NCBI GenBank assembly: GCA_001830425.1
Contig: MIAA01000026.1
Coordinates: 16,675 to 80,674 of the forward strand
Direction of reading: 5' to 3'
Source of the DNA: Rhodospirillales bacterium RIFCSPLOWO2_02_FULL_58_16
Lineage (GTDB): Bacteria; Pseudomonadota; Alphaproteobacteria; Rhodospirillales; 2-02-FULL-58-16
Length of the DNA: 64,000 nucleotides
Shown here: positions 2,201-11,843 of the stretch, piece by piece
How positions within the stretch are numbered: position 1 is the first letter of the stretch
Layout: the number at the start of each line of letters is the position of its first letter
The notes under the pieces: model-generated
The model's input: only the letters and a program-made list of their open reading frames with translations
The model's database searches: none
Told to the model about the DNA's origin: nothing
Translations under genes and position numbers: made by a program

Positions 2201-2668
2201 ATGACCGAGGTCAAATTCTACCATCTGCAAAAATGGCCGTTGGAAAAGGCTCTGCCTAAACTGTTGGAAAAAACCCTTCAGGCGGGGAAGCGGGCCGTTG
2301 TCATTGCCGGCTCGGCGGCGAGGGTGGAAGCGCTGAACGCTCTGCTGTGGACCTATGACCAAAATTCCTGGCTGCCTCACGGCTCCGCCAAAGACGGCGC
2401 CGCCGAAGATCAACCGGTGTGGTTGACCGATAAAGACGAGAACCCCAATCAGGCATCTTTCCTGTTTCTTGCCGACGGCGCGGTATCGGAACGGGTGGGG
2501 GAATTCGAGCGTTGCTTTGAGTTGTTCAACGGCAATGACGAGGCCGCCAAGCAAGCGGCGCGTGAACGCTGGAAAGCGTACGAGGCCGCCGGCCACGAAG
2601 TCACATATCTGCGCCAGACGGATCGGGGCGGATGGGAAGAAGTGGAGAAGAAGGGAACTGTGAGCTGA
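2201..2668 (+). CDS. holC: DNA polymerase III subunit chi
   Basis: The N-terminus is chi-like (MTEVKFYHL...LWTYDQNSWLPHG). AGGAG lies upstream of ATG 2201. The gene sits next to pepA, as is common in proteobacteria. Confidence 0.85.
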   Translation: MTEVKFYHLQKWPLEKALPKLLEKTLQAGKRAVVIAGSAARVEALNALLWTYDQNSWLPHGSAKDGAAEDQPVWLTDKDENPNQASFLFLADGAVSERVGEFERCFELFNGNDEAAKQAARERWKAYEAAGHEVTYLRQTDRGGWEEVEKKGTVS

Positions 2669-2704
2669 GCTAACCCCGGTTTTATGGACAGGCGGCGGTC
2701 GGCA

Positions 2705-4294
2705 TTACAGAAGTTTACCCTGCTTGCTCTTGTTGTGATCTTCCTTGGCCGTCGTCTTGAAGGTGGCGGCGGCGTCGATCAGCGGGATGCGCGGTTTGAT
2801 GCCCTGGAACAGTTCGGCCAGGGTGATGATCTGGATTTTCGGCGTCTTCTCAAACAAGCCTGCGGCGGCGGCCTCCTTTTCCATCGGTCTGGTAGGCAGC
2901 GCCAGCGAGATTAAAATGCCGATGGCGGCCTTTTCGCGTTCGACCACGGCGGTCAGGTCGCGCACCATGCCCACGCCGACATTCTCGCCGCCTTTTACCG
3001 AAACGAGGGCTTTTTCGGTTTTGTTGGCGTCGCCCCTGAAGAACAGGATGCCGTCGATGCCGCCGTCCGCCCCCTTCTTTTTGCCGGCGTACGGTCGGGC
3101 GTCCACCAGCGACACCGCCCACCACTGGAATTGATACTTGTCGCGCCGGGCCAGGTCTTGCGCGCTCGCCAAATCCTTGGGCGTGCCGTGGACATCGAAC
3201 TCGATGCCGGGAAATGCGTCCTTCAGACGCCGCTCGATCAGTGAAATAGCAAGGTGTGTTATGTCGATGCCGATCCAGCTCCTCCCCATTTTCTGCGCGG
3301 CGTGAACCGTGGTGCCGCAGCCGCAGAAAGGGTCAAGGACCACATCGCCTTCGTTCGATGAAGCCCTCAGAATACGTTCCAATAAGGCGACGGGCTTCTG
3401 GGTTGGGTAGCCGAGACGTTCGCTGCTTGTATTGGCAATACGATGCACATCGGTCCACATATCCGAAACGGGTGTCCCTTCTTTTTCATCAAGCCATACT
3501 TTGCGGCCATCAAGGCGAGGCGATCCATCCTTCCGCTTTAGGATCAATCCTGTATTCCATAATTTTTCACGTTCGGCCAAGCTTAAACCCCAGCCCCGTG
3601 GCGTTGTAGGAACGGTTCCTCGCCAAGGCGTTAAATCTCCGCCGATAATCGTCAGGTCTTGTCCGGTGAATAAGCGTCCGGTCTCCGGATCTTCTTCATA
3701 TCGATCAAGCTGCTGTTGTGAAAAAGCCCTAAAGGGTTGGCGATAATAATATCTATCTGATTTTGTGTAATAAAATATAGTATCGTGAACGCGATGAAAC
3801 TGTTTTGATTTGAAATTGTGAGCGTTTGTCCTCTGCCAAATAACTTCATTCCTGAAATTTTCTTTGCCGAACACGGCATCCAGTAGAATTTTCAGGTAAT
3901 GGCCGGCTGTCGGATCGCAATGGAGATAGAGCGAGCCGGTTGATTTCAAGACCCGGCGCAATTCCAGCAAACGCACCGTCATCATGGCGAGATAGGCCAT
4001 CATGTTATTTTCGCCCAGGAACGAGCGCATGGCGCTCAACATCTCGGCGGCCTGGGTGTTGGGCGAGGCCAGTACTTCGGAATAAGCCAGCTCGGCCTCG
4101 TCGCCCCAGGCCCAGGTATCCTTGAAGGCCTCGATCTGGGCGTCGGCGGCTTTGCCGGAATGACTTTTGAATAGAACGTTGTAGTCGGCTTGGCTATTGA
4201 ACGGGGGGTCGAGATAGACCAGATCAATGCTTTCGTCGGCAATCGATTCGCGCAGAACCTTCAGGTTGTCGCCGTAGTAAAGCGCGTTGGTCAT
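2705..4294 (-). CDS. site-specific DNA methyltransferase (beta-class N6A/N4C) with C-terminal Mrr-like nuclease-fold domain
   Basis: Motif IV (DLVYLDPPFNS) lies N-terminal and motif I (VLDPFCGCGTT) lies after a central variable region. The C-terminus reads GADGGIDGILFF...ALVSVKGG, resembling the Mrr catalytic core. The start is at ATG 4294, preceded by GGGGGA. Confidence 0.8.
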   Translation of the reverse strand: MTNALYYGDNLKVLRESIADESIDLVYLDPPFNSQADYNVLFKSHSGKAADAQIEAFKDTWAWGDEAELAYSEVLASPNTQAAEMLSAMRSFLGENNMMAYLAMMTVRLLELRRVLKSTGSLYLHCDPTAGHYLKILLDAVFGKENFRNEVIWQRTNAHNFKSKQFHRVHDTIFYYTKSDRYYYRQPFRAFSQQQLDRYEEDPETGRLFTGQDLTIIGGDLTPWRGTVPTTPRGWGLSLAEREKLWNTGLILKRKDGSPRLDGRKVWLDEKEGTPVSDMWTDVHRIANTSSERLGYPTQKPVALLERILRASSNEGDVVLDPFCGCGTTVHAAQKMGRSWIGIDITHLAISLIERRLKDAFPGIEFDVHGTPKDLASAQDLARRDKYQFQWWAVSLVDARPYAGKKKGADGGIDGILFFRGDANKTEKALVSVKGGENVGVGMVRDLTAVVEREKAAIGILISLALPTRPMEKEAAAAGLFEKTPKIQIITLAELFQGIKPRIPLIDAAATFKTTAKEDHNKSKQGKLL

Positions 4295-4359
4295 GTATCC
4301 CCCATCTGGAGAACATATAGTAGTCTGGTCAAAAAATAGGCACAATAGGTTGTTTTACG

Positions 4360-4860
4360 TTATTTCAGCCGATCCTTGATTTTGTCGATGCCGGCCTGTG
4401 AGCAGGCTTCGTCCAGATGCCCCCCCGGCGCCCCGCCGACGCCGATGCCGCCGATTGCTTCCTCGCCGACCGTTATCGGCAATCCGCCGCCGAGGACCAG
4501 AATCTTGTCGTTCATGTACTTGATCCCTTCGGAGGCCGGGTTCTTGGCGAGCATATCGACAAGAACCGCCGTCGATTTGCGCATGCTCGCCGATGTGTAG
4601 GCCTTATGCGAACTGCTGTCGAGCGTGTGGGGACCGGCGCCGTCCCCCTTGATGTGGACCTTGATCAACCCGCTTTTGTCGGTAACGGCGACGCTGACCC
4701 GGTAACCTTTCGCCTCGCAGTCGGCGAGCGCGGCAAGCGCCGCCTCGTTGGCCAAAGACAACGGCAATATCTTCTCGGAAGGCAGCCCCTGGGCCATTGC
4801 CGTCGTGCCGAACAGAAACGCAAACAGGCCCATGATGTATAATGCGGGATGCTTGGTCAT
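4360..4860 (-). CDS. GlcG/HbpS-like (DUF336) heme-binding family protein, secreted
   Basis: A signal peptide is present (MAQG). The C-terminal motif is [31 protein letters not shown]. The start overlaps the upstream gene's stop by 4 nt. Confidence 0.75.
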
Positions 4861-5807
4861 AGGACTCCTTTGAAGTAGTTGATGGTTTTTTCCAGACCCG
4901 CCTTTAACGGCACCTTCGGTTGCCAGCCCAGTTTGTCCTTGGCTAACGAGATATCGGGACAGCGTTGAGTGGGGTCGTCGGCGGGCAAGGGATAGGTTTC
5001 AATGATCGAAGATGATCCGGTCAGTTTTATAACCGTTTCCGCCAGTTGACGGATGGTGAATTCATCGGGATTGCCGAGGTTCATCGGCCCCGTGATATTG
5101 TCAGGAGCGCCCATCAATCGGATAAAACCGTCAATCAGATCGTTTACATAACAAAATGAGCGGGTTTGTGAGCCGTCGCCGTACAGGGTGATCGCCTCGC
5201 CTTTCAAGGCCTGGACGATAAAGTTGGAGACCACGCGCCCGTCATTGGGGTGCATGCGCGGACCATAGGTGTTAAAAATACGCGCCACCCGGATATTAAG
5301 GTTATGCTGGCGCTTGTAATCAAAAAACAAGGTCTCGGCGCAACGCTTGCCCTCGTCATAACACGCCCTTGGACCGATGACGTTGACGTTACCGCGATAG
5401 TCTTCGGTCTGGGGATGGACCTCCGGGTCGCCATAGACTTCGCTGGTGGAGGCTTGAAAGATTTTTGCCTGCGTCCGTTTGGCCAGTCCGAGCATGTTGA
5501 TGGCGCCGTGTACGCTGGTCTTGGTGGTTTGCACGGGATCGAACTGATAATGGACGGGAGACGCCGGACAAGCCAGATTGTAGATTTCATCCACTTCCAC
5601 ATAGAGCGGAAAGGTGATGTCGTGGCGCATCAATTCGAAATGGGGATCGTCCATAAGATGGATAATGTTGTCTTTGGCGCCGGTGAAGAAATTATCAACG
5701 CACAGGACATCATGGCCGTCGGCAATCAGCCGCTCGCACAAGTGAGAGCCTAAAAAACCGGCTCCGCCGGTTACCAAAATCCTTTTTCTCAACAATCCGC
5801 TCCTCAT
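4857..5807 (-). CDS. UDP-glucuronate decarboxylase (UDP-xylose synthase-like SDR)
   Basis: Extended SDR with a [14 protein letters not shown] Rossmann motif, a YDEGKR catalytic region and the typical length of 316 aa. Confidence 0.85.
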
Positions 5808-5816
5808 CTCATAACG

Positions 5817-6554
5817 CTAAGTTTGCAGAAATCGTCGTTCCTTGCCCTCTAATACCAGACAAGTTAGTATCCCGCTATAGAAGGCTCCGGTATCAATGCC
5901 GATACGGTTGGGCCTGATGTCGGGAAACGGCCTGACGGAATGACCATGCACTACTATTTTGCCGAAAGATTCTCGGCAATTCAGAAACTCCTCACGAATC
6001 CAAAGAAGCGATGACTCCTGCTGATTTTCAAGAGGCGTTCCCGGATTAACGCCGGCGTGGACAAACATGTAGTCTCCCACCGTGTATGATGTTTTCAGGC
6101 TGCGGTAGAAATCAAGGTGACTTGGCGGCAAGAATCGGCGGAATTCGCGCCGTATCGACTGTAAATCTTCCATTTCCGTGAACATGCCGGGAAGTTTAAT
6201 CCCATAGCTCTCGATGGTGGCCGCGCCGCCGTTTAACAGCCAGACATCGCCGTTTGCCCCGTTATCATAAAAACAGAGCAAAAGGTCTTCGTGGTTGCCT
6301 TTTAAATGCACGGTCTCAAAGCCCTCAAGAGGAGCCGTGATCAGCGATTCTACCACGGCGCATGAATGAGGACCGCGATCCACATAATCGCCCAGGTAAA
6401 TCAGTATGTTACGCCCCGGCGAATCCTGTTCGGCGGCGTCGGCGATGCGCCGGCGCAGGTCTTCAAGAAGGTCGATGCGGCCATGGATATCGCCGATGGC
6501 GTAAACGCATACGCCGTCGGGAACGCCGGGGGAAGCGCAGGAGAGATGTTTCAT
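5817..6554 (-). CDS. PPP-family metallophosphoesterase (Ser/Thr phosphatase 1 / ApaH-like)
   Basis: Motifs GDIHGR, GDYVDRG, GNHE and VHGH appear in the canonical order. Confidence 0.85.
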   Translation of the reverse strand: MKHLSCASPGVPDGVCVYAIGDIHGRIDLLEDLRRRIADAAEQDSPGRNILIYLGDYVDRGPHSCAVVESLITAPLEGFETVHLKGNHEDLLLCFYDNGANGDVWLLNGGAATIESYGIKLPGMFTEMEDLQSIRREFRRFLPPSHLDFYRSLKTSYTVGDYMFVHAGVNPGTPLENQQESSLLWIREEFLNCRESFGKIVVHGHSVRPFPDIRPNRIGIDTGAFYSGILTCLVLEGKERRFLQT

Positions 6555-6601
6555 GCGGTTATTAAAATGCCATGTCCGGGGGCTTGCCTATCCGGTCAGC
6601 A

Positions 6602-8047
6602 TCAGAACATCTCAGTTTGCCGGTCGGTTTTTTCGCGAGCGGCGGCATTGAACGTAGCGGCGGAGTCGATTCTGGGAATGCGCGGGCGTTTACCCTGGAA
6701 CAGCTCCGCCAGGGTGATGATCTGGATTCTCGGCACCTTCTCAAACGGCGTCTCAAAGAAACCGGCGGCGGCGGCCTCCTTCTCCATCGGCTTGGTGGGA
6801 AAGGCCAGCGAGATCAACACGCCGACCGCCGCCTTCTCGCGCTCGACCACGGCGATCAGATCGCGGATCATGCCGACGCCGATGTTCTCGCCGCCTTTGA
6901 CCGAGACCAGCGCCTTTTCCGTCTTGTCCTTGCCGCTGCGGAAAAAGAGGATGCCGTCAATGCCGCCGTCGGCCCCCTTCTTCTTGCCGCCATAGGGCCG
7001 CGCCTCCACCAGCGACACCGCCCACCATTGGAACTGATATTTATCGCGCCGGGCGAGATCTTGCGCGCTGGCCAAATCCTGCGGCGTCCCGTAAACGTCA
7101 AAGGCGATGCCGGGAAAGGCGTCCTTCAAGCGCCGCTCGATCAATGAAATGGCAAGGTGGGTGATGTCGATGCCGATCCATTGGCGATTGAGCTTGTGGG
7201 CGGCGTGAACGGTTGTGCCGCAGCCGCAAAACGGATCAAGCACTACATCTCCTTCGTTTGATGAGGCGGAAATGATCCGCTCAAGGAGAGCCAGAGGTTT
7301 TTGAGTCGGGTATCCGAGACGCTCGGCGGCATTTGGATTGATGATCGAAATTTCCCACCAATCCGGCATTGGCGATTGAGCTTTTTCATCCGCCAGACTT
7401 GATGCTTTACGAATGCCGTCTTCCATATCCGCTTGCTGCTTGTGTCCCTTCCATCGCTTCATAGTTCCCTTTGACGGATCAGTGTATAAGACGTTGAATG
7501 TCGCGCCTTTGGGTAATTTAGTGACTAAATGGATGTCATCGTGATTGCGAACAAATTGGCCGGCCGCAACGCTCCACTTTCGATAACACCAGATAATTTC
7601 ATTCTTGTAGTTTCGAGCGCCAAACACCGCGTCCAGCAAAATTTTAAGGTAATGACCCGCCGTCGGATCGCAATGCAGATAGAGCGATCCCGTCGGTTTC
7701 AATACGCGGTGCAGTTCGAGCAGACGCACGGCCATCATGGCGAGATAGGCCATTACATCGTTTTCACCGAGGAACAGGCGTAGCGCCCGGAGCAATTCGG
7801 CGGCCTGGGTGTTGGCTGAACCAAGAACCTCGGAAAAGGCGCTTTCCGCCTCTTCCCCCCAATGCCATGTATCCTTGAAGGCTTCGATCTGGGCATCGGC
7901 GCTGTTGCCCGAGGCGCCCTTGAACAAGACGTTATAGTTGGCCTGACTGTTGAACGGCGGATCGAGGTAAATCAGATCGACGCTCTCGCTCTGAATGCTC
8001 TCTCGCAAAATGGAAAGATTGTCGCCGTAGTACAGTGAGTTTCCCAT
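6602..8047 (-). CDS. site-specific DNA methyltransferase (beta-class) with C-terminal Mrr-like domain; paralog of 2705-4294
   Basis: It carries the same DPPFNS...FCGCGTT...GADGGIDGILFF...VSVKGG architecture. The N- and C-terminal thirds are about 80-85% identical to the other copy, and the middle does not align. The start is at ATG 8047, preceded by GGAGGTGG. Confidence 0.8.
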   Translation of the reverse strand: MGNSLYYGDNLSILRESIQSESVDLIYLDPPFNSQANYNVLFKGASGNSADAQIEAFKDTWHWGEEAESAFSEVLGSANTQAAELLRALRLFLGENDVMAYLAMMAVRLLELHRVLKPTGSLYLHCDPTAGHYLKILLDAVFGARNYKNEIIWCYRKWSVAAGQFVRNHDDIHLVTKLPKGATFNVLYTDPSKGTMKRWKGHKQQADMEDGIRKASSLADEKAQSPMPDWWEISIINPNAAERLGYPTQKPLALLERIISASSNEGDVVLDPFCGCGTTVHAAHKLNRQWIGIDITHLAISLIERRLKDAFPGIAFDVYGTPQDLASAQDLARRDKYQFQWWAVSLVEARPYGGKKKGADGGIDGILFFRSGKDKTEKALVSVKGGENIGVGMIRDLIAVVEREKAAVGVLISLAFPTKPMEKEAAAAGFFETPFEKVPRIQIITLAELFQGKRPRIPRIDSAATFNAAAREKTDRQTEMF

Positions 8048-8197
8048 GAGTCCACCTCCGTCGCCGGGCGAAAGTAACGTCAAAATCATGGGGGTGCAAT
8101 CAAGCAATTATTCCATTAAGCCTGCTGATGTTTATTAACGTTTTGTTTTCATAATCCGGGGCATAATAGCCGAAGGCATAGAGTTTATGGGTTAACG

Positions 8198-9454
8198 ATG
8201 GCCGAGACCGGCGCCGCTGCGACAATTCCCGACTTGGAGAAAACAAGCGAGGAAAGCTTGTTGCTGGATCGTTTGTTCAGCATGGAGGACAGCCGCGTCG
8301 GCGCTTACAGCATTCATCTCCGCTTGTCTGAACTCAGGCCCGGCAACCGCAAGCCCCACTATATCCGCATTGCCAAGCGCTCTTTCGAGCCGGTAATCGC
8401 CGCCTTTAACGCAACTCTTTTCGAGCTTTCCAATTGCGATTTGATCCTGCTTTGCGTGGACGTCGCCATTGATGAAATCGACCCGGCTGTCGCCAAGGTC
8501 AGGGCTTTGTTCAGTGAAGATCCGCTGACCGCCGCCGAGGAAGGCTCGATTGAGGACGTTTTTGCCACCTGGTACGACCTTTCACAGGATGAAGATTATA
8601 ACAACTTTGTTTCGTTGATTACCGATCTGACGGCGGACGCCGAGGAGCGTCTGCGAAAGTTGGCCGAGGAGAAGGCGGTGGAGGGCGCCAGGCAAATGTC
8701 GGGAACGCCGCTGGCCCCCGCCAATCTGGCCGACATCAGCAAAAAAATGAGCGAGACCAGAATCTCCGATCTCATCCAGCAGCAATCAGCAATCAAGATC
8801 GAGGCCAACGGCAAGGGAAAACTGCTGTTCTGCGAGCATTTTATTACCATGTCCGGCCTGCAAAAGAGGGTGGCGCCGGACATTAATCTGTTCGGCAGCA
8901 CATGGCTGTTTCAGTACCTGACCGAAACCCTGGATAAACGTGTATTGGCGGTGATCGGTCGCAGAGATTTTGCGACAATGGATGTGCCGATGAGTCTCAA
9001 CCTTAACCTCAGCACCCTTCTTTCCAAAGAGTTTCAGTTATTTCACCACAACGTCGGCGATAACGCCCACAAGGTGGTTATAGAGATGCAGATGGTGGAT
9101 ATATGCGCGGATATCGGAGCATTCGCCTATGCCCGTAATATGTTGCAGGAACGCGGCTACAGGGTTCTTATTGACGGCGTTAATCCTCTTTCGCTTCAGT
9201 ATTTCGATCCCAGCGTGCTTGAGGCTGATTTCGTTAAAGTCAGTTGGGGAAAGGAATTTTTCAGCGAAGTTCCCGGCGCCCACATGCTCGGCATACAAGA
9301 TATCGTGGACAGAACCGGTAAAAACCGCATCATCCTGGCGCGTATTGATAACGAAAAAGCCGTTGCGTGGGCCTTATCTTTCGGCATTACCCGTTTTCAG
9401 GGGTATTATATAGATACAATCGTGAAAGCCCTGCGGGCCAAGGGGATTATCTAA
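8198..9454 (+). CDS. hypothetical protein with degenerate EAL-like C-terminal domain
   Basis: The C-terminal half aligns by eye with the genuine EAL domain at 62579-63853. The matches are NLNLS/NISARQ, VVIEMQ/EITE, VLIDGVN/ADDFGTG, DFVKVS/DTIKID, ILARIDNE/VAEGVEDNE and FQGYYI/IQGFLF, and most catalytic acids are replaced. Confidence 0.6.
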   Translation: MAETGAAATIPDLEKTSEESLLLDRLFSMEDSRVGAYSIHLRLSELRPGNRKPHYIRIAKRSFEPVIAAFNATLFELSNCDLILLCVDVAIDEIDPAVAKVRALFSEDPLTAAEEGSIEDVFATWYDLSQDEDYNNFVSLITDLTADAEERLRKLAEEKAVEGARQMSGTPLAPANLADISKKMSETRISDLIQQQSAIKIEANGKGKLLFCEHFITMSGLQKRVAPDINLFGSTWLFQYLTETLDKRVLAVIGRRDFATMDVPMSLNLNLSTLLSKEFQLFHHNVGDNAHKVVIEMQMVDICADIGAFAYARNMLQERGYRVLIDGVNPLSLQYFDPSVLEADFVKVSWGKEFFSEVPGAHMLGIQDIVDRTGKNRIILARIDNEKAVAWALSFGITRFQGYYIDTIVKALRAKGII

Positions 9455-9463
9455 AGGATATAA

Positions 9464-10837
9464 ATGACGCCTAATCCGGAAGCTCAAAAGCGACTGCCCA
9501 GTCAGGAAAACCTGTTGCTGGACTATGTCCACCGTCTTGAAACCCACAGAGACGGGCGCAGAGCCGTCCACCTCAAGCTTTCCGCGCTTAAGGCATTTAA
9601 TCGCCGCGATCAGCATATCCGCGCCGCCGCCAACAGTTTTGAGCCTCTGATCAAGGCGCTGCACGGACAACTCTTTACGCTCAAGAACGGCGATCTTTTC
9701 TTTGTCTTCAAGCATGGAGCGCAGGCGCAAACCGAAACCATCGTTCAGCAAGTGCGTTATATGTTCAGCGATGACCCTTTATTCGAAGATGAGAAAAACG
9801 TTAAATCCGGTAAATTTTCCGTCTGGTACGACGCTGAAACCGAGTTCGATAAAATACTTCATGCGGTTCAGCTTTTGGTGGAAACCGAACACCGACGCCA
9901 GTCGGAATCGCGTGACATGCGCCAGAATACGCGCTCATCGCTTAAGGCCAGGCAAGAGATGGGCGATCCTCTTACCCCCGAAATATTGGGTCGGGTCGAG
10001 GCGGCGCTGATTCGCGCCGATCTTTCCAATCTTGTTCGCCGGCAGTTCGTGTGCAGGGTCGACAGGAAGATGGTGCCTGAACAACAATTCAGCGAACTGT
10101 TCATTTCCATAAAAGATCTGCGTGAAACGTTGCTTCCCGGCGTCAATTTGATGGCCAATTCCTGGTTATTTCAGCACCTGACCGAGACTCTGGACAAACG
10201 CATGTTGGCTATGCTTTCCAAGACTGACGCTTTGACAATTTCCGGAGACATCAGTTTCAATATGAATATTTCAACCATGTTGTCGCCCGAATTTCTCGCC
10301 TTTGACGATAACATCACTGCGTCACGTCGCGGCGCCATGATTATTGAACTGCAAAATCAGGATATTTTCGCCGATATCGGCGCTTATCTGTTCGCCCGCG
10401 AATTTGTCCAGGAGAAAGGTTATCGCGTCTGTCTGGACGGACTAACCTACCAGACCCTTGATATGATCGACAGGGAACACCTGGGGGTTGATCTGGTCAA
10501 GCTCATATGGAAACCGGATATAGCCGACAAAGGCGACGACATGCGTAACAAGTTGGTCGCCACCATAAGGAAGGTCGGGGCGGATCGAGTAATTTTGTGC
10601 CGGGTTGATAACCGCGAAGCCGTGGACTTCGGCCATGTTGTGGGGATCAAATTATTTCAGGGACGATATATCGAAAATCTTATCGCCGAGGATAATCGCC
10701 GCCGCGAATTGCTGCGCCTGAAGCGGCGCATGGAGCGGAGCGAAATGGCGGAAGAAGAAGAGGTGGAAGAAAAGAAGGATAAAAAATCGGGGGCTATCTT
10801 GAAAGTAATTCCCAGAATTAATCCTTTCGGGCGCTGA
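9464..10837 (+). CDS. hypothetical protein with degenerate EAL-like C-terminal domain (tandem paralog of 8198-9454)
   Basis: It shares blocks with its neighbour: WLFQHLTETLDKRML, GYRVCLDGL, VDLVKLIW, ILCRVDNREAV and FQGRYIE. It adds a charged C-terminal tail. Confidence 0.6.
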   Translation: MTPNPEAQKRLPSQENLLLDYVHRLETHRDGRRAVHLKLSALKAFNRRDQHIRAAANSFEPLIKALHGQLFTLKNGDLFFVFKHGAQAQTETIVQQVRYMFSDDPLFEDEKNVKSGKFSVWYDAETEFDKILHAVQLLVETEHRRQSESRDMRQNTRSSLKARQEMGDPLTPEILGRVEAALIRADLSNLVRRQFVCRVDRKMVPEQQFSELFISIKDLRETLLPGVNLMANSWLFQHLTETLDKRMLAMLSKTDALTISGDISFNMNISTMLSPEFLAFDDNITASRRGAMIIELQNQDIFADIGAYLFAREFVQEKGYRVCLDGLTYQTLDMIDREHLGVDLVKLIWKPDIADKGDDMRNKLVATIRKVGADRVILCRVDNREAVDFGHVVGIKLFQGRYIENLIAEDNRRRELLRLKRRMERSEMAEEEEVEEKKDKKSGAILKVIPRINPFGR

Positions 10838-11843
10838 CCCCGGCCTCGCTGAAGGTTGCCATGCCGCCATGGCAGGCGGCGGCGGCCTTAAGCAGCTCCA
10901 CCGCCAGCACCGCGCCGGAAGCTTCCCCCAACCGCATATCCAGATTCAATAAAGCCGTCTTGTCGAGGCGCTTGAGAAGGCGGTGGTGACCCGGCTCGGC
11001 TGAGACGTGGCCTACCTGGCAGTGGTCCAGCGCGCCTTGCTTCTGAGCCTCAAGGACAGCAGCCGCCGCCGTGCAGACATAACCGTCGAGCAATACGGGA
11101 ACGCGCTTGAGTCTGGCGGCAAGCACGGCGCCGACAATCGCCGCCAATTCCCTCCCGCCGAGACGACGCAGGATGTCTATGGCGTCGGTGGCGGCGTCAA
11201 GATGCAGGGCAACCGCCATGTCGATGATCGCGGCTTTTTTGGCCAACGCCTCGCCTTCAATGCCGGTGCCGGGGCCGGTCCAATCGAGCGCCGCAGCGCC
11301 GTGGAGGGCATGGCATAACGCGGCGGCGGAAGTAGTGTTGCCGATTCCCATTTCGCCCAGACAAAGCACGTCCATGTCCTTGTTGACCACGCTGAAACCC
11401 AAGGCGACGGCCTCTGCGCACTCGGCTTCGCTCATCGCCGGGGCTTGCGTAAAGTCATGCGTCGGTCGCTCCAGCGTTATTGCCTCGACGCGCAAGCCGA
11501 CGCCGAAAGCCGTGCAAAGCTGATTCACCGCCGCGCCGCCGGCCTCGAAGTTGGCCACCATCTGCGCCGTCACTTCCGGCGGAAACGCCGATACCCCGCG
11601 CCGGGCGACGCCGTGGTTGCCGGCGAAGACGCAAGCGAAAGGATACTGTATGCGCGGCGGGTGACGGCCTTGCCATGCCGACAGCCACTCGCTCAATCGC
11701 TCAAGCCGCCCCAGCGATCCTTGAGGCTTGGTCAGACGCGGTTCACGCTCCCTGGCATGGGATATCGCCGCCTCATCGGGGCTGGGGATATCCTTCAGCA
11801 GACGGCGGACATCATCAAGGGTTTTAGGGGTCAATTCCGGCAA
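10818..11843 (-). CDS. cobT: nicotinate-nucleotide--dimethylbenzimidazole phosphoribosyltransferase
   Basis: The GEMGIGNTTSAAAL motif is present, the length is 341 aa, and the gene is adjacent to cobalamin synthase. Confidence 0.9.
   Translation of the reverse strand: MPELTPKTLDDVRRLLKDIPSPDEAAISHAREREPRLTKPQGSLGRLERLSEWLSAWQGRHPPRIQYPFACVFAGNHGVARRGVSAFPPEVTAQMVANFEAGGAAVNQLCTAFGVGLRVEAITLERPTHDFTQAPAMSEAECAEAVALGFSVVNKDMDVLCLGEMGIGNTTSAAALCHALHGAAALDWTGPGTGIEGEALAKKAAIIDMAVALHLDAATDAIDILRRLGGRELAAIVGAVLAARLKRVPVLLDGYVCTAAAAVLEAQKQGALDHCQVGHVSAEPGHHRLLKRLDKTALLNLDMRLGEASGAVLAVELLKAAAACHGGMATFSEAGVSARKD

Follow-up and report, generated by a model that had tools for sequence, protein, structure and literature searches.

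How did two DNA methyltransferase (MTase) genes that are alike at both ends and unlike in the middle come to stand so close together, and what do their products do? The question is raised by a 64,000-nucleotide (nt) stretch of DNA, here called the window, from a groundwater metagenome-assembled genome (MAG) of Rhodospirillales bacterium RIFCSPLOWO2_02_FULL_58_16 (contig MIAA01000026.1, positions 16,675 to 80,674 of the forward strand). The genes, MT1 (2705..4294) and MT2 (6602..8047), flank three others, and an earlier interpretation drawn from the letters alone (the sequence-only reading) took them for a pair of paralogues, each a beta-class MTase with a replaced target-recognition domain (TRD) and a fused Mrr-like module, which bracket the three genes as direct repeats. 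It is already known that beta-class MTases can be modular, with TRDs open to exchange, that MTases can be fused to nucleases and that single-chain restriction-modification (R-M) enzymes can carry Mrr-type domains. Proteins that join a beta-class MTase to a C-terminal Mrr domain abound in databases, yet our literature searches found no characterised prototype. Here we propose that MT1 and MT2 may be compact single-chain R-M enzymes of different specificity, an explanation that we favour tentatively and whose chance we put a little short of even.

Two methyltransferases with a C-terminal Mrr-type domain

MT1 is a protein of 529 residues, identical to P0001, the 'DNA methylase' of Rhodospirillales bacterium RIFCSPLOWO2_12_FULL_58_28, and MT2, of 481 residues, is identical to the record P0121. 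Both open reading frames (ORFs) lie on the minus strand, as had been read; they begin with ATG at 4294 and 8047, each behind a GGAGG-type ribosome-binding site, and they are the only copies of their family in the window. Pfam N6_N4_Mtase (PF01555) matches MT1 with 163.8 bits (E 7.5e-48) and MT2 with 155.8 bits (E 2e-45), at a cutoff of 26.7. Motif IV, DPPF, occupies residues 29-32 in both proteins and motif I, FCGCGTT, residues 323-329 in MT1 and 273-279 in MT2; the order of motif IV, then TRD, then motif I is that of the beta class. Solved beta-class MTases, namely EcoP15I Mod, CcrM, M.BceJIV, RsrI and MboIIA, are matched by fold (Foldseek E 7e-18 to 1e-12), the top PDB folds for the AF2 model of MT1 (pLDDT 78) being the Mod proteins of EcoP15I and H. 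pylori (4zcf, 6k0w), and MT2 aligns contiguously across its TRD to M.BceJIV (9c3u, 8urk) and M.RsrI (phmmer). The assignment of both proteins to the beta class, with the TRD between motifs IV-VIII and motif I, is thus upheld by Pfam, by motif order and by fold. DPPF, unlike SPPY/F, suggests N6-adenine, and to judge from this motif N6-adenine is probably the methylated base.

No NCBIfam model is specific to the family, the only matches being to CcrM/PRK11524 and below threshold. PADLOC returned generic Type II and Type III MTase models only, with E values of 1e-27 to 1e-40 for the Type III models and best matches to Type II models; the best model differs between MT1 and MT2, and none of the three middle genes is matched.

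The C-terminal domain is matched by Pfam Mrr_cat (PF04471) with 37.3 bits in MT1 (E 3.2e-9) and 35.8 bits in MT2 (E 9.4e-9), above the cutoff of 21. In MT1 it spans residues ~373-505 (2780..3178, minus strand) and carries F389-Q390 in a helix, motif II D410-G-G-I-D414, motif III S432-V-K434 and D446 in the helix that follows; in MT2 (6671..7081, minus strand) the corresponding residues are F339-Q340, D360-G-G-I-D364, S382-V-K384 and D396. The sequence-only reading was right in recognising an Mrr-type module in which Ser (S432, S382) replaces the usual Gln or Glu, as it was in finding the DPPF, FCGCGTT and DGGID...SVK motifs in both proteins.

The pattern of conservation within this tail bears directly on whether it could cut. 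In 66 diverse tails from many phyla, G43, D45, G47, D49, G50, K69 and G71 are invariant in both variants of the active site, that is, motif II D-x-G-x-D together with the Lys of motif III. Motif II of Mrr comprises the catalytic Asp and an Mrr-specific second Asp four residues upstream, and in the Mrr-type domain of LlaGI Smith et al. found that D74A, D78A and K94A abolish cleavage, whereas with E38A (motif I) or Q92A (motif III) it still proceeds, at a rate lowered more than 10-fold (PMC2790908). The Asp, Asp and Lys that are essential in LlaGI are the residues invariant here, and the positions that vary here are the auxiliary ones of LlaGI. Following the invariant Phe of motif I, 45 of the 66 tails have Gln and 20 have Glu, and the motif III position is Ser in 43, Gln in 22 and Glu in one. 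These two positions co-vary, F-Q going with Ser and F-E with Gln. The canonical F-E and Q-x-K motifs are retained in about a third of the family, whereas both window copies depart from them with F-Q and S-V-K, a combination that they share with 32 of the 66 relatives. At K+12, within the helix that comes after motif III, 39 of 43 Ser-type tails have an acidic residue, as compared to 12 of 23 Gln/Glu-type tails (Fisher p = 0.001, uncorrected for phylogeny). A carboxylate relocated to that helix is known from Cfr10I, NgoMIV and Bse634I and has been proposed, by model, for E231 of Mrr (PMC2790908).

The tail is under strong purifying selection (omega, the ratio of nonsynonymous to synonymous divergence, 0.12; 85-95% identity across organisms). 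Its domain model (pLDDT 85) finds weak matches to the restriction endonuclease (REase) fold in RPB5-N, EcoT38I, BspD6I, PaqCI and AF1548, and a profile of the domain searched against PDB sequences gave spurious matches only (Vps33, S1).

Exchange of recognition cassettes between conserved frames

The variable centre of MT1 (3423..3835, minus strand; residues ~154-291), delimited by nucleotide comparison, by GC content at third codon positions (GC3) and by hhalign, includes the TRD cassette, as does the centre of MT2 (7326..7588, minus strand), which is without nucleotide homology to MT1. BLAST of the two centres yields one match of 12 residues, DEKxxxPxxDxW. Profile-profile alignment of the 130 long and 50 short centres of the family recovers the first 24 columns, just past motif VIII (probability 88%), and nothing more. 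The truly unrelated core amounts to ~85 residues in MT1 (about 200-283) and ~35 in MT2; the earlier statement that the central parts do not align therefore stands for this core, not for the 130-180 residues that it had named.

The sequence-only reading had also remarked on an AT-rich centre in MT1, and GC content is indeed 0.42 at 3601-3900 as compared to 0.59 for the window, with a dip in the centre of MT2 as well. In MT1 the patch is a signal of synonymous sites, GC3 being 0.27-0.5 in the centre and 0.7-0.9 in the frames on either side; the dip in GC3 is milder in the MT2 centre (0.40-0.60). Over 79 family genes (from loci L001-L091) the mean GC3 is 0.55 in the TRD and 0.74 in the frames, and in 33 of the 79 the TRD falls more than 0.2 below the frames, as would fit a more frequent horizontal movement of TRDs than of frames. 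This difference in composition suggests that TRD cassettes are drawn from a lower-GC pool, or that they turn over faster than amelioration.

Throughout the family the centres make up two superclasses that are not related to each other, one of 130 long and one of 50 short segments, and 26 clusters at 50% identity. For 23 of 182 proteins the nearest relative by frame bears a TRD of the other class, and P0110 and P0125, with 95% identity in the frames, have TRDs of different classes. The TRD of MT1 is 76% identical to that of P0005; with P0006 and P0011, the relatives nearest to MT1 by frame, its identity is only 28-29%. MT2 and the P0015 gene (L007) are 85-86% identical in nucleotide sequence at nt 6-459 and 724-1434 and unalignable between; the breakpoint at nt 459 is common to the MT2/P0015 and MT1/MT2 comparisons, and the downstream breakpoints are within ~25 codons of each other. 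On the evidence of these mosaic genes, the exchange of TRDs by cassette replacement within conserved frames is real and family-wide, as the sequence-only reading had supposed for the two window copies. Genes for R-M specificity typically diversify their cassettes in this way, unlike regulators with a fixed specificity.

As the TRDs of MT1 (long, Type III Mod-like) and MT2 (short, M.BceJIV/M.RsrI-like) are of unrelated classes and resemble different enzymes, the two proteins likely recognise different target sequences, in support of the earlier claim of different specificity. The recognition motifs themselves are not predictable because the identities to characterised enzymes are too low.

Within MT2 we also find a perfect 17-nt direct repeat, AAGCTCAATCGCCAATG (coding strand), at 7179-7195 and 7367-7383, 188 nt apart and in different frames. 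One copy codes for KLNRQW right after motif I, and the other codes for part of EKAQSPMP, where the TRD cassette has its 3' edge. The chance expectation for such a repeat in a gene of this size is ~1e-4 by our own estimate, and the repeat may be a scar left by recombination or a site of slippage or deletion.

Origin of the two genes and of the operon between them

Overall, MT1 and MT2 are 64% identical (BLASTP). Codon alignment gives 78% amino-acid and 73.5% nucleotide identity in the N-terminal block (152 codons) and 82.5% and 77% in the C-terminal block (234 codons), hence the 80-85% amino-acid and ~80% nucleotide identity first reported were essentially right, if slightly high; counted over MAFFT columns, the identity is 79% in the N-terminal block and 86% in the C-terminal block (residues 292-505). 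Nucleotide homology is found only between 3836-4288 and 7589-8041 (74%) and between 2757-3422 and 6648-7325 (78%); it ends within the coding regions, short of the flanks, with perfect runs of at most 21 and 23 nt. Synonymous divergence (dS) is 1.89 and 1.06, near saturation, with omega of 0.08 and 0.12. The C-terminal block of MT1 is closest to P0006 (92%) and that of MT2 to P0015 and P0049 (94-95%), and in the frames MT1 and MT2 rank 13th to 44th among each other's relatives, foreign proteins being nearer. As dS is near saturation, omega is low and foreign frames are closer, the ~80% identity of the frames is the family baseline under strong purifying selection. The likeness of the two genes is far beyond chance, yet it is a matter of protein-level constraint and no repeat in the DNA sense.

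The three genes between them have a history of their own. Read along the minus strand, MT2 is followed by a calcineurin-like metallophosphoesterase gene (5817..6554; Pfam Metallophos E 3.4e-13), by UXS, which encodes an NAD-dependent sugar-nucleotide epimerase/dehydratase resembling UDP-glucuronate decarboxylase (4857..5807; Pfam GDP_Man_Dehyd and Epimerase), by an HbpS/GlcG-like gene (4360..4860; Pfam HbpS-like E 1.9e-30) that overlaps the UXS stop codon by 4 nt, and by MT1. In 8 metagenome loci among those longer than 6 kb UXS adjoins the phosphatase gene, at 75-80% identity. Two of the related loci, L096 and L154, have cobT, EAL2 and EAL1 on one strand and then phosphatase and UXS on the other, with an EAL1-to-phosphatase gap of 160 nt in L096 and 76 nt in L154; the same gap holds MT2 in the window. 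Since this junction is without an MTase in both relatives, MT2 is an insertion into a conserved EAL1/phosphatase junction. In the close relative L172, where UXS is 91% and HbpS 82% identical and the two genes have the same 4-nt overlap, a convergent asparagine synthase gene (asnB) comes directly after HbpS, and the same gene follows UXS in L154; MT1 and holC are not there, and therefore MT1 lies at a synteny break. A family MTase is found in none of 80 phosphatase-anchored metagenome loci, and the three-gene set is found near none of 80 family MTase loci. Judged by this synteny, the three middle genes are a native operon and the MTases the newcomers; by their divergence and nearest relatives, MT1 and MT2 are old, separately acquired members of their family.

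Could the pair nevertheless have arisen by a recent local duplication, with the TRD swapped in place and direct repeats of 0.5-0.7 kb serving as recombination substrates? Such a history would account for the same orientation, the tight spacing and the common frames of the two genes, and the family does exchange TRDs via conserved frames. Of 80 related loci, one, L068, has another family copy within 10 kb, its two same-strand members (4550-6238 and 9965-11635) lying 3.7 kb apart; they are 57% identical and both have Q-V-K as motif III, and the intervening genes are unrelated (a thioesterase, a ParA-like protein and an MFS protein), giving a second 'bracketing' look without a shared cassette. 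Yet this is the only such case, and dS, the nearest-neighbour ranks of the frames and the lack of flank homology led us to reject a recent in-situ duplication. A mobile cassette was rejected because the gene order in L096, L154 and L172 speaks against it and co-occurrence is lacking. A composite-transposon-like structure was likewise rejected, the homology being confined to coding frames at 74-78% nucleotide identity with dS above 1, and the borders of MT1 and MT2 having neither inverted nor direct terminal repeats nor target duplications. Given the requirements of RecA and the anti-recombination activity of mismatch repair, perfect runs of 21-23 nt in 74-78% identical DNA are a poor substrate, and recombination between the two genes is for this reason unlikely. 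In addition, the MT1-bearing contigs that we read, from several samples, have the identical arrangement wherever their length suffices. A recent local paralogue pair is thus not borne out, nor are the direct repeats bracketing a three-gene cassette and the repeat-mediated deletion or MTase chimerisation of the sequence-only reading.

Family spread and gene neighbourhoods

Each of the two proteins has more than 8000 homologues, the best of which are 60-75% identical over the full length and have the same three Pfam domains. Species-representative genomes contain at least 596 matches; the best 80 of these, at 46-63% identity (best aligned segment), come from Alphaproteobacteria, Acidobacteriota, Chloroflexota, Planctomycetota, Desulfobacterota and one archaeon (a Thermoplasmatales MAG), and all but one truncated match include the tail. 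A tail-only profile finds 2503 cluster representatives at E <=1e-10, a search that we use for family-size numbers only, many of its top matches being assembly fragments or frameshifted tails.

Some sequences hold only part of the architecture. P0217 (165 residues) resembles a stand-alone nuclease-fold tail and begins at the domain boundary, and P0183 joins a Sel1-repeat N-terminus to such a tail. On the complete chromosome of Methylocapsa polymorpha RX1 (L073, 10001-11113) the family match spans residues 3-371 only; the Mrr-type tail of this member appears to have been lost or disrupted, and the gene may be an MTase-only derivative.

Family members are also carried on rhizobial plasmids and, at full length, by temperate phages, namely Mycobacterium phage Dori (gp42; L174, 1873-3510), Streptomyces phage Ejemplo (gp47; L175, 1843-3498) and the Marinitoga phage MPV1 (MPV1_55; L176, 1936-3492). 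In these phages an integrase or CI-like repressor gene adjoins the MTase gene or lies within ~1.2 kb of it, a position typical of genes expressed from the prophage. The Dori and Ejemplo proteins have F-E with S-V-K, and the MPV1 protein F-Q with Q-V-K.

No recurrent partner was found among 125 immediate neighbours in 69 loci, where even the commonest Pfam family is represented just 4 times and neither a nuclease nor a helicase turns up repeatedly. Next to the MTase stand housekeeping genes, e.g., those of D-Ala-D-Ala ligase, UvrA and IF-1, and the contexts vary (purB-MT-ychJ, yidD/VTT-MT-rlmI, imuB-MT-dnaE2). A res gene is found neither in the first 14 kb of the window, nor in the contigs L001 and L002, nor beside the 69 relatives, so that the lack of an adjacent restriction gene, already noted for the window, extends to these relatives. 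The MT protein acts alone or with unlinked factors. In L004 (7650-14757) and L005, from a different organism, the short-TRD member P0122, which is 73% identical to MT2, has an imuB-like Y-family polymerase gene on one side and dnaE2 on the other and so lies inside an imuA-imuB-dnaE2 mutagenesis cassette.

Other features of the locus

The five minus-strand genes are spaced by 47, 9, -4 and 65 nt, as tightly packed on one strand as had been read, and no minus-strand terminator-like site was found in 2400-8400. A weak sigma-70-like promoter match lies 5' of MT2 on the same strand (8107..8134; 9/12 consensus positions and a TG extension) and is a possible start of a five-gene transcript; in the promoter scan, matches in the MT region were no more numerous than the shuffled expectation. 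Upstream of MT2, on the plus strand, EAL1 (8198-9454) and EAL2 (9464-10837) are tandem paralogues with 35% identity (E 2e-79). Their matches to the EAL domain are below threshold (22.5 and 25.6 bits, cutoff 31.3), and they are possibly degenerate c-di-GMP phosphodiesterase-like proteins. The pair is conserved beside cobT and the phosphatase gene in the metagenome relatives L096 and L154.

On the same contig (L001, 20742-21590), ~6.5 kb past the left end of the window, ~9 kb from MT1 and beyond pepA, adjacent genes encode DUF4145 and HNH_2 proteins, a pairing that is frequent in restriction-type defence loci.

Discussion

Based on our data we propose that in MT1 and MT2 an N-terminal beta-class MTase dependent on S-adenosylmethionine and a C-terminal Mrr-family PD-(D/E)xK domain would form a self-contained, partner-less enzyme. 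The Mrr-type domain would be a working metal-dependent nuclease guided by the same TRD as the MTase, and each protein would shield its own sites by methylation and cut unmodified DNA, in a Type IIC-like manner and without an ATPase, in defence of its host. New specificities would be gained when the TRD cassette is replaced through recombination within the highly conserved frames; MT2 was inserted upstream of the native operon, and MT1 sits at the synteny break downstream. A single-chain R-M enzyme is the best fit because the triad is invariant, the tail is constrained, TRDs turn over, a partner is lacking and phage members are carried in the lysogeny module of prophages. With more reserve, and as a possibility somewhat on the doubtful side, we suggest that the window holds, one on each side of the native operon, two independently inserted members, of different specificity, of a so far unrecognised and very widespread class of ATP-independent, TRD-swappable single-chain R-M enzymes of ~500 residues; in the Ser-type majority of this class, both window genes included, the active site would have been rebuilt around the Asp at K+12.

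Several observations weigh against a tail that cuts. The MT proteins are far smaller than the known Type IIC/IIG enzymes, and no characterised MTase-Mrr fusion was found in our literature searches. Both MT1 and MT2 have Gln for the Glu of motif I and Ser for the Gln of motif III, two weakened positions that together may be inactivating; in MspJI the substitution Q355A abolishes activity (PMC2938202). The 'inactive restriction endonuclease' model NA-iREase1 matches the two tails nearly as well as Mrr_cat does (35.1 and 31.9 bits, cutoff 27), and the closest solved fold is the non-catalytic N-domain of RPB5, all PDB matches being weak. Moreover, the conserved housekeeping synteny of some relatives (purB-MT-ychJ, L006 and L009) also fits a solitary MTase. 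It is conceivable, therefore, that MT1 and MT2 are solitary MTases, that the Mrr-fold tail is a non-cutting module for DNA binding, clamping or dimerisation, and that the two proteins add two motifs for epigenetic marking or for protection from foreign restriction enzymes. That the genes stand alone among housekeeping genes, that lone protective methyltransferases are frequent in phages and that the family is mostly annotated 'DNA methyltransferase' agree with such a role, for which CcrM, with its non-catalytic C-terminal domain, offers a comparison. We regard this alternative as quite possible, though with appreciably less than an even chance, and it stays close because of the double substitution in the window copies. 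A non-catalytic domain, however, would be expected to lose its Asp-Asp-Lys triad, which is invariant across phyla, Ser-type tails included, and the positions that do vary are those not essential in LlaGI, with the canonical F-E and Q-x-K kept by about a third of the family. In addition, the ongoing turnover of TRD cassettes is hard to square with a fixed regulator.

MT1 and MT2 might instead be the modification or recognition half of a split system, the restriction or effector partner of which, an unlinked Res or a larger defence system, is encoded elsewhere in the genome. The fold and TRD of MT1 are nearest to Type III Mod subunits, the Type III MTase models of PADLOC match, and the DUF4145 and HNH_2 genes are on the same contig. 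We consider a split system improbable, as no helicase, Res or other partner recurs beside the 69 relatives, the best PADLOC matches are to Type II MTase models, a fused nuclease-fold domain makes a separate nuclease unnecessary and the phage members travel alone. The local duplication discussed above is more improbable still, and we give it hardly any weight: the two genes differ at dS 1.06-1.89, their frames are nearer to foreign proteins, their homology ends inside the ORFs, and the supposed cassette is native and syntenic in relatives without MTases.

Among characterised enzymes, the layout comes closest to that of BtgZI, a Type IIC enzyme known to be active, in which an MTase at the N-terminus is joined to a PD-QxK domain at the C-terminus (PMC4081073). 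Like BtgZI, MT1 and MT2 are single polypeptides with the MTase at the N-terminus and a PD-(D/E)xK variant at the C-terminus, and about a third of their family has Q-x-K; unlike BtgZI, whose MTase is of the alpha class, they are of the beta class and have S-x-K, the likeness being judged from the description of that enzyme. With the Type IIC/IIG enzymes in general they share, by domain architecture only, a nuclease and an MTase in one polypeptide with one specificity module, but a beta-class MTase with a C-terminal nuclease fold resembles in its layout only the atypical BtgZI (PMC4081073). Type III Mod proteins (EcoP15I, H. pylori) are also beta-class N6-adenine MTases with a central TRD in conserved frames and allelic TRD exchange. 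In contrast to them, MT1 and MT2 have no res gene nearby and no ATPase, they carry their nuclease-fold domain in one chain with the MTase, and a phase-variable repeat tract was not observed. The contiguous alignment of MT2, TRD included, relates it to M.BceJIV and M.RsrI, and CcrM likewise has an extra C-terminal domain, but these enzymes are without an Mrr-type domain, and CcrM has a fixed specificity and conserved synteny. As the identity is low (~20%), the specificity of M.BceJIV or M.RsrI is not transferable to MT2.

[quoted passage not shown] As it is attached to an MTase, and not to a methyl-DNA reader or a helicase, its target would more likely be unmodified DNA. In Cfr10I, NgoMIV and Bse634I, too, the acidic residue of motif III is replaced by Ser and a carboxylate is found in the helix just after it (PMC2790908), a likeness for which we claim no sequence homology and in which the role of D446 is putative.

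For the window itself our results are mostly corrective, in that two ordinary family members stand by a native operon, with no recombining repeat structure. The family is at home in soil and water bacteria, on rhizobial plasmids and in temperate actinophages. If the tail cuts, thousands of genes annotated 'DNA methyltransferase' would be complete one-gene R-M systems, whose small size and plug-in recognition cassettes would be attractive for programmable enzymes and which would have to be reckoned with in predictions of gene-transfer barriers. Should the tail not cut, the family would present a clean case of a restriction-nuclease fold retained by strong selection for a non-catalytic job.

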